Below, piece by piece: positions 38,819 to 39,980 of a DNA stretch of 41,680 nt (position 1 is its first letter; every line of letters starts with the position of its first letter). The notes under the pieces are model-generated. The model saw only the letters and a program-made list of their open reading frames with translations, was not told where the DNA came from and made no database searches. Made by a program: the position numbers and the translations under genes. Source of the stretch: a virus; the IMG/VR virus record IMGVR_UViG_3300036905_000054, one strand, 5' to 3'.

Positions 38819-39142
38819 TCACTCCAAGGGAATATTAGCAAAATTATCTTCGATCAATTCAGAAAAATATTTGCGTCTTTCCAAAATGTATCTTTTAACA
38901 TCCGAGGCTTTGATACCGTACTCTACTAGCTCTTCTTGTGCCACGACGGAGCGAAGGTATTCTTCTACTGGAACGGACACATATTCTTCCCTGTAGAAAG
39001 GCTCTCTGACTCCTTTTATATCCCAATTCGGCACCTTGATGACATGATCAAATATGTAAATTTCTGTCTCCAACTGTCGAACACAAAATCGCACTTGAGA
39101 ATCGAATACTGTAATGGCTCGATAGCCCAGAGATTTACTCAC
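38819..39142 (-). CDS. hypothetical protein
   Basis: 107 aa. Confidence 0.5.
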   Translation of the reverse strand: MSKSLGYRAITVFDSQVRFCVRQLETEIYIFDHVIKVPNWDIKGVREPFYREEYVSVPVEEYLRSVVAQEELVEYGIKASDVKRYILERRKYFSELIEDNFANIPLE

Positions 39143-39980
39143 TCGTTGCCGCCTTTCTCACCAGTATATCATTTTCCCAAGCATATGGAATTAAATCTCT
39201 CAAATAATTCCGATTTCGAGTAAACACCGGCGTATTTTCGTCAATTACCCAGTTGGTATTTCCGATGGTTACTGAGTCAATTTTCCGAATTATGCGTCCG
39301 TGCTTAAAAGAAGCTGGGTGCTTTGCCCAATTGTCGCCTGCGGCTTGAATAATTTCGTGTTGCGCTGCACGATTTTTTCCGTGAAGTTGTTTGTGACTGG
39401 CGTATGCTTGTGCCAGCATGGTTACGCTATTTCGTTCAGCGTCCTGTTGTCGCCAAACATAGTAATTTTCGACTTCAACCAGATCAGGAATCGTGAATAC
39501 CCTAGCGTCAAACATAGCGTTCATGAGTTTTTTACCGCCAAGCAAAGATGTATCACGGGCAGACGTTACCAGCCAGCCTTCTCCGAAGGAGTCGCGGAGC
39601 GCCAGCTTCTGGTAGTAGCCGACTTGAAGGTTAAATGCCGTTGTAGCGATGGAAGCCCCCACGCTCACCCATTTCTGTATCACACCATCAAACCAGGGCT
39701 CAGTTTTGATATCGAGAAAATCCACAGCCAATAAACTGATTTCATCGGATTGAATGTAGGCGAATTGAGCCCCGCTGATTTGCTCACAAAGTGCCCTTGC
39801 TGCGGCATTCATGCAGTCCATAAATTGCTTGTCGTAGGGCTTTGCCAGTCCTTTAGTCCATGTATGGAAAGCTCTGCCAACGCGAAGAATGGTGTAAGTA
39901 CGCTTCGGCAGAAGAAAACGGTACACATTTTCATGCCGTTTCATCCGATCACCCAGGGAATCGGCTTTAGATTTGCTCAT
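39135..39980 (-). CDS. Thg1-like protein (tRNA-His guanylyltransferase / 3'-5' polymerase family)
   Basis: MSKSK...DRMKRHE start, LRVGRAFHTW (Thg1 VRLDGRNFHRF), KPYD (KPND), AYIQSDEISLL (AYGQSDEYSF, SDE catalytic pair) and WFDGVIQKWVSVGASIATTAF (WFKRRASKFMTHVASQFAS). The first conserved Asp seems replaced. Confidence 0.7.
   Translation of the reverse strand: MSKSKADSLGDRMKRHENVYRFLLPKRTYTILRVGRAFHTWTKGLAKPYDKQFMDCMNAAARALCEQISGAQFAYIQSDEISLLAVDFLDIKTEPWFDGVIQKWVSVGASIATTAFNLQVGYYQKLALRDSFGEGWLVTSARDTSLLGGKKLMNAMFDARVFTIPDLVEVENYYVWRQQDAERNSVTMLAQAYASHKQLHGKNRAAQHEIIQAAGDNWAKHPASFKHGRIIRKIDSVTIGNTNWVIDENTPVFTRNRNYLRDLIPYAWENDILVRKAATSE

Follow-up and report, generated by a model that had tools for sequence, protein, structure and literature searches.

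The Thg1-like protein (TLP) encoded at positions 39135-39980 on the minus strand of the viral record IMGVR_UViG_3300036905_000054 (41,680 nucleotides, referred to here as the window) lacks the first of its metal-binding aspartates, removed by an in-frame deletion of one codon. The reading we favor, with moderate confidence and on the strength of sequence comparison, is that this TLP belongs to a known phage family of tRNA-repair genes and was inactivated recently. We infer both the loss of nucleotide-addition activity and the recency of the lesion. The gene class and its RNA-repair role in phages are already known; the fixed, lineage-specific deletion of an essential catalytic residue is particular to the window.

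By homology, intact TLP in the relatives of this phage would activate the tRNA 5′ end and add templated nucleotides, restoring a truncated 5′ end, and would do so with two Mg2+ ions held by two aspartates. In the window lineage, a 3-nt slip deleted the first of these aspartates and also shortened the loop that binds the tRNA 5′-triphosphate and the metals. The resulting protein most likely still folds, with most or all nucleotide addition lost. The lesion would then be a loss-of-function allele that reached fixation and has so far escaped further decay, and it is probably recent, because the rest of the TLP sequence is undamaged.

Identity of the protein and the missing aspartate

The initial annotation placed an open reading frame (ORF) of the Thg1 family at 39135-39980. 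The coordinates are exact, and the ORF (minus strand, ATG start, 281 codons for 281 amino acids, stop included in the interval) matches Pfam Thg1 (PF04446) with 82.7 bits and E=2.8e-23 over profile positions 2-130 of 130, the curated cut-off being 29.2 bits. It also matches PHROG 4717, annotated as 'tRNA-His guanylyltransferase' (E=1.1e-70); NCBIfam contains no model matching it. Among solved structures, the Bacillus thuringiensis TLP (BtTLP, 4KGK) is matched with E=9.9e-47 and ~35% identity in the HMMER profile alignment, whereas eukaryotic Thg1 structures are matched far less well, from 2e-9 (CaThg1) to 1e-4. An AlphaFold2 model based on a 57-sequence alignment (predicted local distance difference test score, pLDDT, 86.2; predicted template modelling score, pTM, 0.85) predicts a palm fold like that of solved Thg1/TLP structures, and its best 32 matches in a Foldseek search of the PDB are all Thg1/TLP, led by BtTLP with target-normalised template modelling (TM) scores of 0.87-0.90. 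The ORF is a member of the Thg1/TLP superfamily. Since its match to BtTLP is so much stronger than those to eukaryotic Thg1, and its predicted fold is closest to BtTLP, it is a bacterial-type TLP and not a eukaryotic-type Thg1.

BtTLP (4KGK/4KGM), the closest solved relative, is a bacterial-type template-dependent 5′-end repair enzyme and not a dedicated G-1 adder. It shares the role-assigned residues of the window TLP but is encoded by a bacterial gene, retains the first aspartate (D30), and has a shorter version of the loop that spans residues 125-150 of the phage protein and is modelled with low confidence. A 15-residue difference from the homolog P0002 (KLALRDSFGEGWLVT) was set aside, as it falls in a variable-length, low-pLDDT loop and the direction of change cannot be polarised. 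Eukaryotic Thg1 (yeast, human, C. albicans) has the superfamily, palm fold and two-metal chemistry in common with the window TLP, which contains equivalents of D76/E77, K44, S75 and N161; similarity is nevertheless weak, and in place of HINNLYN, the anticodon-recognition motif of Thg1, the window TLP has ERNSVTM. A 144-aa ORF on the opposite strand (39300-39734, plus strand) lies wholly within the TLP gene and is most likely a shadow ORF without significance.

The HMMER alignment with BtTLP contains a one-residue gap in the window TLP ('RV.GRAFH' against 'RIdGAHFH'), and the missing residue, counted along the BtTLP chain, is D30 (human D29, MaTLP D21). Alignment of the DNA with that of a relative, L011 (SRR12736056), whose gene is ~95% identical, resolves the gap into an in-frame 3-nt deletion: codons V34-G35 at 39876-39881 (minus strand) read GTT-GGC in the window, where L011, like every other relative, has GTT-GAT-GGC (V-D-G). 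The deleted triplet is located in a TG..TG micro-repeat, and no acidic residue lies near the deletion in the window TLP (TYTILRVGRAFHTWTKG). The first metal-binding aspartate had been described as substituted; it is indeed absent by comparison with BtTLP and L011, through loss of its codon rather than through substitution. Inspection of the catalytic carboxylates, which the initial annotation had proposed, shows that one of three is lost. The second and third, D79 and E80 (human D76 and E77), are kept in an S78-D79-E80 segment at 39741-39749 (minus strand; QSDEI motif, BtTLP S74-D75-E76 in the 4KGK alignment) that is invariant in 119 homologs; the family profile match is significant, and the loss of all carboxylates was not seen.

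The aspartate is otherwise universal in the comparisons made. All 119 other proteins from the homolog search (54-92% identity) have (V/I/A)DG at this site, as do, for the aspartate, all related metagenomic and viral loci outside the window lineage that cover the motif (~30 loci). An exhaustive family search gave 5015 clusters at E<=0.001; among the best 150 of the 5015 cluster representatives (39-70% identity), the aspartate is present in 145/145 motif-covering members, save P0135, a frameshifted, error-laden fragment from the window phage itself. Across the ~300 homologs and loci compared, loss of the aspartate is unique to the window phage lineage.

Within that lineage, the allele lacking the aspartate was assembled independently 19 times, from JGI and ENA samples and on contigs as long as 178 kb. 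In 12 contigs the gene is nucleotide-identical, deletion included, and 7 more differ by one single-nucleotide polymorphism (SNP); in the indexed collection, 100 blocks contain the exact protein and 46 more contain a W41R variant. Neither stops nor frameshifts occur in the clean assemblies, and the allele is fixed in a near-clonal phage lineage. Indel noise is obvious in two contigs of one metagenome (L043, L050) and in the fragment P0135, which might have pointed to a sequencing or assembly error in a single sequence; recurrence of the same deletion across different samples and assemblers, in all 19 assemblies, rules out such an error as its source and leaves the artefact explanation a negligible probability.

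In BtTLP, D30, D75 and E76 correspond to human D29, D76 and E77; strict conservation is reported for D30 and D75, the two aspartates that bind both Mg2+ ions, and the D75A variant has strongly reduced activity (PMC3701042). In the complex of the archaeal MaTLP with tRNA, the equivalent aspartate, the carbonyl of the next glycine and the D21-K26 loop hold the metals and the tRNA 5′-triphosphate, and mutation of D29 or D76 in human Thg1 markedly decreases activity (PMC4820378). A review reports that replacement of the metal-binding carboxylates by alanine abolishes activity in vitro (PMC6471195). With the first aspartate missing, and with carboxylate mutants reported to have lost their activity wholly or in large part, the window TLP is less likely than not to be an active repair or editing enzyme.

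A still-active 3′-5′ repair or editing enzyme, acting on 5′-truncated phage or host tRNAs through one metal site or water-mediated coordination, is accordingly given a low probability. In its favor, the two other carboxylates and every activation and transfer residue are retained, the main-chain carbonyl beside the aspartate also ligates metal in MaTLP (PMC4820378), and the genome carries an RlaP-family nucleotidyltransferase and many tRNAs, which fits an RNA-repair lifestyle (PMC7824862). The lost aspartate, however, ligates both catalytic metals, is invariant in ~300 sequences and is reported to be essential; the deletion moreover leaves the triphosphate-binding loop shorter and the strand out of register, and no tRNAs needing 5′ repair were found among those described below.

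Other phage TLPs provide the context for this loss. A TLP homolog annotated as tRNA-His guanylyltransferase is carried by 162 deposited phage genomes, a name routinely given to phage Thg1-like genes. Those of PHROG 4717, for example from Bacillus phages Eldridge and G and Xanthomonas phage XacN1, belong to the same family as the window TLP with <=41% identity, and the phage representatives examined keep the catalytic aspartate that the window TLP lacks. In a comparative study of jumbo phages, Thg1, RlaP nucleotidyltransferases and CCA-adding enzymes were grouped as nucleotide-restoring RNA-repair functions, with Thg1 occurring sporadically (PMC7824862). The repair role of phage Thg1 was thus already inferred by comparative genomics in that study, and since both the gene class and the proposed role are in the literature, the advance in new biology is modest. 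No biochemical study of any phage TLP, or of a deletion as opposed to an alanine variant, was found in the searchable literature. For annotation, the window TLP illustrates that a strong family match need not mean an active enzyme.

Constraint on the remainder of the protein

Apart from the deletion, the window TLP is well preserved. It agrees with 92/94 alignment columns that are >=95% conserved among the 119 homologs, the two deviations being V to I and F to Y. The other role-assigned residues are all present: E17, R33, F38/H39, T42, K47, S78-D79-E80, R160, R177, N184 and M188, equivalent to E12, R28, F34/H35, T38, K43, S74-D75-E76, R131, R147, N154 and M158 of BtTLP. The activation and transfer residues known as K44, S75, N161, R27 and R133 in yeast are represented by K47, S78, N184, R33 and R160, respectively, which are invariant or K/R in the clade; for yeast K96, we infer only that K103 is the window equivalent.

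Between the window and L011, the synonymous divergence (dS) of the TLP gene is 0.137 and the ratio of nonsynonymous to synonymous divergence (dN/dS) 0.089, compared with dN/dS values of 0.050 and 0.042 for the flanking conserved ORFs. Outgroup polarisation assigns ~5 derived amino acid changes to the window branch and 1-2 to the L011 branch, an asymmetry that is not significant; H212Q, in a column that is His in 108/119 homologs, is among the former. Along the whole window branch, ~43 replacements would be expected under neutrality against the 5 seen, and neutral evolution over more than ~22% of that branch is excluded on this estimate. With neutrality largely excluded, either the deletion is recent or the protein is still constrained.

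The second of these possibilities corresponds to a retained pseudoenzyme, in which selection maintains the TLP lacking the aspartate for some function other than catalysis. Binding to tRNA 5′ ends or acceptor stems, as a shield or decoy against host nucleases, is one candidate; the protein might also join a host TLP or act with the 194-aa and 107-aa partners encoded beside it. We regard this as a serious but clearly less probable explanation. The ORF is intact in the 19 assemblies, with the 92/94 conserved columns and the other active-site and nucleotide-binding residues kept; dN/dS is low, the allele is fixed and widespread across samples, and no other gene of its conserved cassette is as well conserved as TLP. 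In addition, Thg1 and TLPs are tetramers that bind tRNA across subunits (PMC6471195), an arrangement compatible with a binding role. A recent lesion nevertheless explains the same data, and W41R (in 7/18 contigs), G70V and N172T fall at strongly conserved columns. Among the family representatives, no clade of TLPs lacking the aspartate occurs elsewhere, and there is consequently no precedent for a stable form of this kind. A more specific version, in which the phage has turned a 3′-5′ tRNA polymerase into a silent, selected binder of tRNA 5′ ends or acceptor stems that shields tRNAs or disturbs host tRNA surveillance, is slightly more doubtful still.

The polymorphisms themselves decide little. 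W41R is a radical change in an aromatic-only column beside the nucleotide site, and G70V and N172T lie at near-invariant columns. The window-lineage population, however, is near-clonal, with ~3 synonymous and 13 nonsynonymous SNPs over 16 genes; as SNPs are few and mostly nonsynonymous in all genes, W41R is unremarkable and the three variants carry no statistical weight. Relaxed selection as read from within-lineage polymorphism was therefore rejected as a line of evidence for lack of power.

Several points weigh against a recent inactivation. The low dN/dS of TLP (0.089, close to the 0.04-0.05 of its neighbors), together with an ORF intact in all clean assemblies, is also the pattern expected from continued selection on the protein without its aspartate, and polymorphism cannot show relaxed constraint in a near-clonal population. 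A second, intact TLP copy may lie elsewhere in the genome of ~150-178 kb, beyond the window and ~20 kb flanks that the scan for such a copy covered.

The recently inactivated TLP that we favor, and its relatives, amount to a natural experiment: a widespread, near-clonal phage carries a TLP without one essential metal ligand, and a 95%-identical relative keeps that ligand. A comparison of the proteins, or of the phages, would reveal whether the phage gains anything from the polymerase activity, and also whether TLP does something else that needs no catalysis.

tRNA genes and candidate substrates

TLP was noted from the outset to be encoded together with a large set of tRNAs, and the 19 tRNA genes that ARAGORN calls in the window share the TLP strand; Rfam adds one at 49-122. 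The main array (1749-4180, minus strand) comprises tRNAs for Trp, His, Arg (four), Asn, Gln and Asn, an odd tRNA, and tRNAs for Lys and Phe. Two relatives with apparently intact TLP, L058 and L059, carry the orthologous array in the same order, next to a gene pair for a vault-like protein and an RlaP-family nucleotidyltransferase. A second group (Leu, Ser four times) lies at 13081-14905 (minus strand), and two tRNA-Lys(CTT) genes at 37589-38192 (minus strand) are ~0.6-1.5 kb downstream of the TLP cassette. Adjacency to TLP is not a consistent feature, as no tRNA genes are found within 3-10 kb of it in six relatives, and the co-occurrence is at the genome level.

The tRNA-His(GTG) gene (3998-4078, minus strand) bears directly on the function suggested by the database name. 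The tRNA proper (3998-4077) has the acceptor stem GTGGTGT/ACACCAC, discriminator C73 and an encoded CCA, with a G at 4078 just 5′ of G1; its D-arm is non-canonical, having C at position 14 and an 11-nt D-loop. The initial annotation correctly reported that G-1 is encoded, and took this to argue for a repair or editing role. As the tRNA-His genes of L058 and L059, whose TLPs appear intact, likewise encode G-1, C73 and CCA, the encoded G-1 is ancestral to the phage group and the argument does not set the window phage apart from its relatives. For the same reason, the idea that encoded G-1 made TLP dispensable in the window lineage was ruled out.

A strict G-1-adding tRNA-His guanylyltransferase that matures the phage tRNA-His is very improbable. 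Database annotations carry that name, the phage group encodes tRNA-His, and in relatives a mini-protein resembling HisRS is encoded beside it. Against this, the window and both relatives already encode G-1, facing C73, so that no G-1 need be added; BtTLP is matched at 1e-46 and eukaryotic Thg1 at only 2e-9, the motif is ERNSVTM and not HINNLYN, and the catalytic aspartate is missing. The marks of a bona fide Thg1, namely greater closeness to eukaryotic Thg1, a HINNLYN-type motif and a tRNA-His without encoded G-1, are all absent.

The phage's own odd tRNAs had also been put forward as targets, but the window contains a single mismatched tRNA-like gene, at 2166-2236 (minus strand; ARAGORN and Rfam, 44.5 bits). 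Its acceptor pairs 1-3 are mismatched (A.G, U.G, A.A), the only such case among the 19. Its anticodon loop, moreover, is 6 nt long (ATTAAC, perhaps the decayed form of a UUA or suppressor-type anticodon) and CCA is not encoded, both of which mark it as a probable pseudogene; a full CCA is encoded in 16/18 other window tRNAs, the remaining two being called as ending in CC. In the relatives with intact TLP, 27/28 tRNAs have well-paired acceptor stems, and one non-CCA call was left unscored by the parser. The mitochondrial 5′-editing TLPs of Dictyostelium and Acanthamoeba belong to the same family and repair mismatches at acceptor positions 1-3, the pattern seen at 2166-2236; the window, however, offers one case with an otherwise defective tRNA, and the relatives with intact TLP offer none. 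Editing of phage tRNA 5′ ends as a general mechanism was ruled out on these counts.

Host tRNAs cut by nucleases, the other targets put forward initially, are candidate substrates only. The tRNA repertoire, skewed towards four CGN Arg isoacceptors, three Lys(CTT), two Asn, His, Gln and Trp, shares specificities with known anticodon nucleases and would be compatible with replacement of nuclease-targeted host tRNAs. That phage tRNAs replace host tRNAs cut by anticodon nucleases is a published idea (PMC10264068; PMC7824862).

Other parts of the tRNA-related module also differ between the window and its relatives. Between tRNA-Trp and tRNA-His, L058 (15124-15657) and L059 (16523-16990) encode the HisRS-like mini-protein of 155-177 aa, which corresponds to E. 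coli HisRS residues 35-146 and 236-288 in the catalytic core and lacks an anticodon-binding domain. In the window the two tRNAs are 27 nt apart (4078 to 4105) with no remnant of this ORF between them, and the window phage either lost it at this position or never had it. The window tRNA-His scores below the Rfam tRNA threshold, compared with 60-61 bits for the copies in the relatives, and the Arg(TCG) and Ser(CGA) tRNAs of the window also fall below it. Across the orthologous tRNA block in the three genomes (window 1749-4180, L058 14929-18979, L059 16253-20757), the median Rfam tRNA score is 39 bits in the window versus 60.5 and 55.5 in the relatives (Mann-Whitney p=0.005 and p=0.07). Taken with the TLP lesion, the missing HisRS-like ORF, the degenerate tRNA and the lower tRNA scores suggest, from three genomes, that the tRNA-related module of the window phage is degenerating or diverging, a setting in keeping with the inactivation that we favor.

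Two further features of the tRNA genes were observed. ARAGORN draws long extra arms, normally limited to Leu, Ser, Tyr and Sec tRNAs, on 86-91 nt tRNA-Gln, -Asn, -Trp and -Arg genes, in the window (2537-2625 and 2734-2820, minus strand) and again in L059 (16253-16343, 18162-18250, 18436-18521 and 20525-20612). The 3′ CCA is encoded in nearly all tRNA genes of the window phage, L058 and L059.

The TLP cassette, relatives and neighboring genes

TLP lies in a four-gene cassette (69aa-194aa-TLP-107aa) conserved across the clade, all on the minus strand. The first gene is a 69-aa ORF (40655-40864, by tblastn synteny across loci), followed by a 194-aa ORF (40034-40618) directly upstream of TLP and a 107-aa ORF (38819-39142) directly downstream, both assigned from the ORF list and synteny. 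The 107-aa gene begins with a GTG that overlaps the TLP stop codon, which it abuts or overlaps across the clade. TLP is the best-conserved member, with 55-69% identity versus 30-57% for its neighbors. The 194-, 107-, 69- and 144-aa neighbors have no Pfam or PHROG match, PDB sequences searched with profiles of the 107-aa and 194-aa ORFs likewise yielded none, and the AlphaFold2 model of the 107-aa protein (pLDDT 48.5) has no confident fold. A promoter and terminator scan found one 10/12 promoter-like site just upstream of the TLP start, and such sites are no commoner than in shuffled sequence. A 144-aa ORF (38381-38815, minus strand) between the cassette and the tRNA-Lys genes has a dN/dS of 0.88 against L011 and several population indels; it is either very fast evolving or not a real gene.

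The relatives of the window phage are metagenomic contigs of 55 kb to >450 kb, including a 463-kb IMG/VR contig (L012); a scan of IMG/VR gave two relatives only, and 21.7 kb of window sequence matched no deposited phage by megablast. TLP is carried by a group of large (~120-460 kb) environmental phages with big tRNA arrays.

The gene pair mentioned above consists of an RlaP-family Pol-beta nucleotidyltransferase (Pfam 67 bits; PHROG 388, 5e-46) and an 826-aa protein with major-vault-protein shoulder and repeat domains (92 bits), at 5953-6786 and 7063-9543 (minus strand) in the window. RlaP has been described as an RNA-ligase-associated repair nucleotidyltransferase; no RNA ligase was seen in the window. 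The pair also lies beside the tRNA array in the relatives (L058 6852-10849; L059 7300-10837).

Some minor observations concern the surrounding sequence. Window positions 16250-16756 give a weak PCRF-like match only. In the 463-kb relative L012, a 145-aa ORF (7930-8367) with a GGQ motif (TGGKGGQKQN...) lies ~1.6 kb upstream of TLP, two ORFs before the 194-aa homolog, and was read by eye as a candidate RF-1/ArfB-like peptidyl-tRNA hydrolase. Upstream of the cassette, a TnpB/IS605 OrfB-like gene (Cas12f1-like_TNB) occupies window positions 41408-41680 (minus strand), running past the window end, and is found at ~7500-9100 in L001-L006. The MazG gene beside it (window 40993-41499) is missing from some strains (e.g. 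L003, L005 and L006), an indel polymorphism in a population that is otherwise near-clonal.

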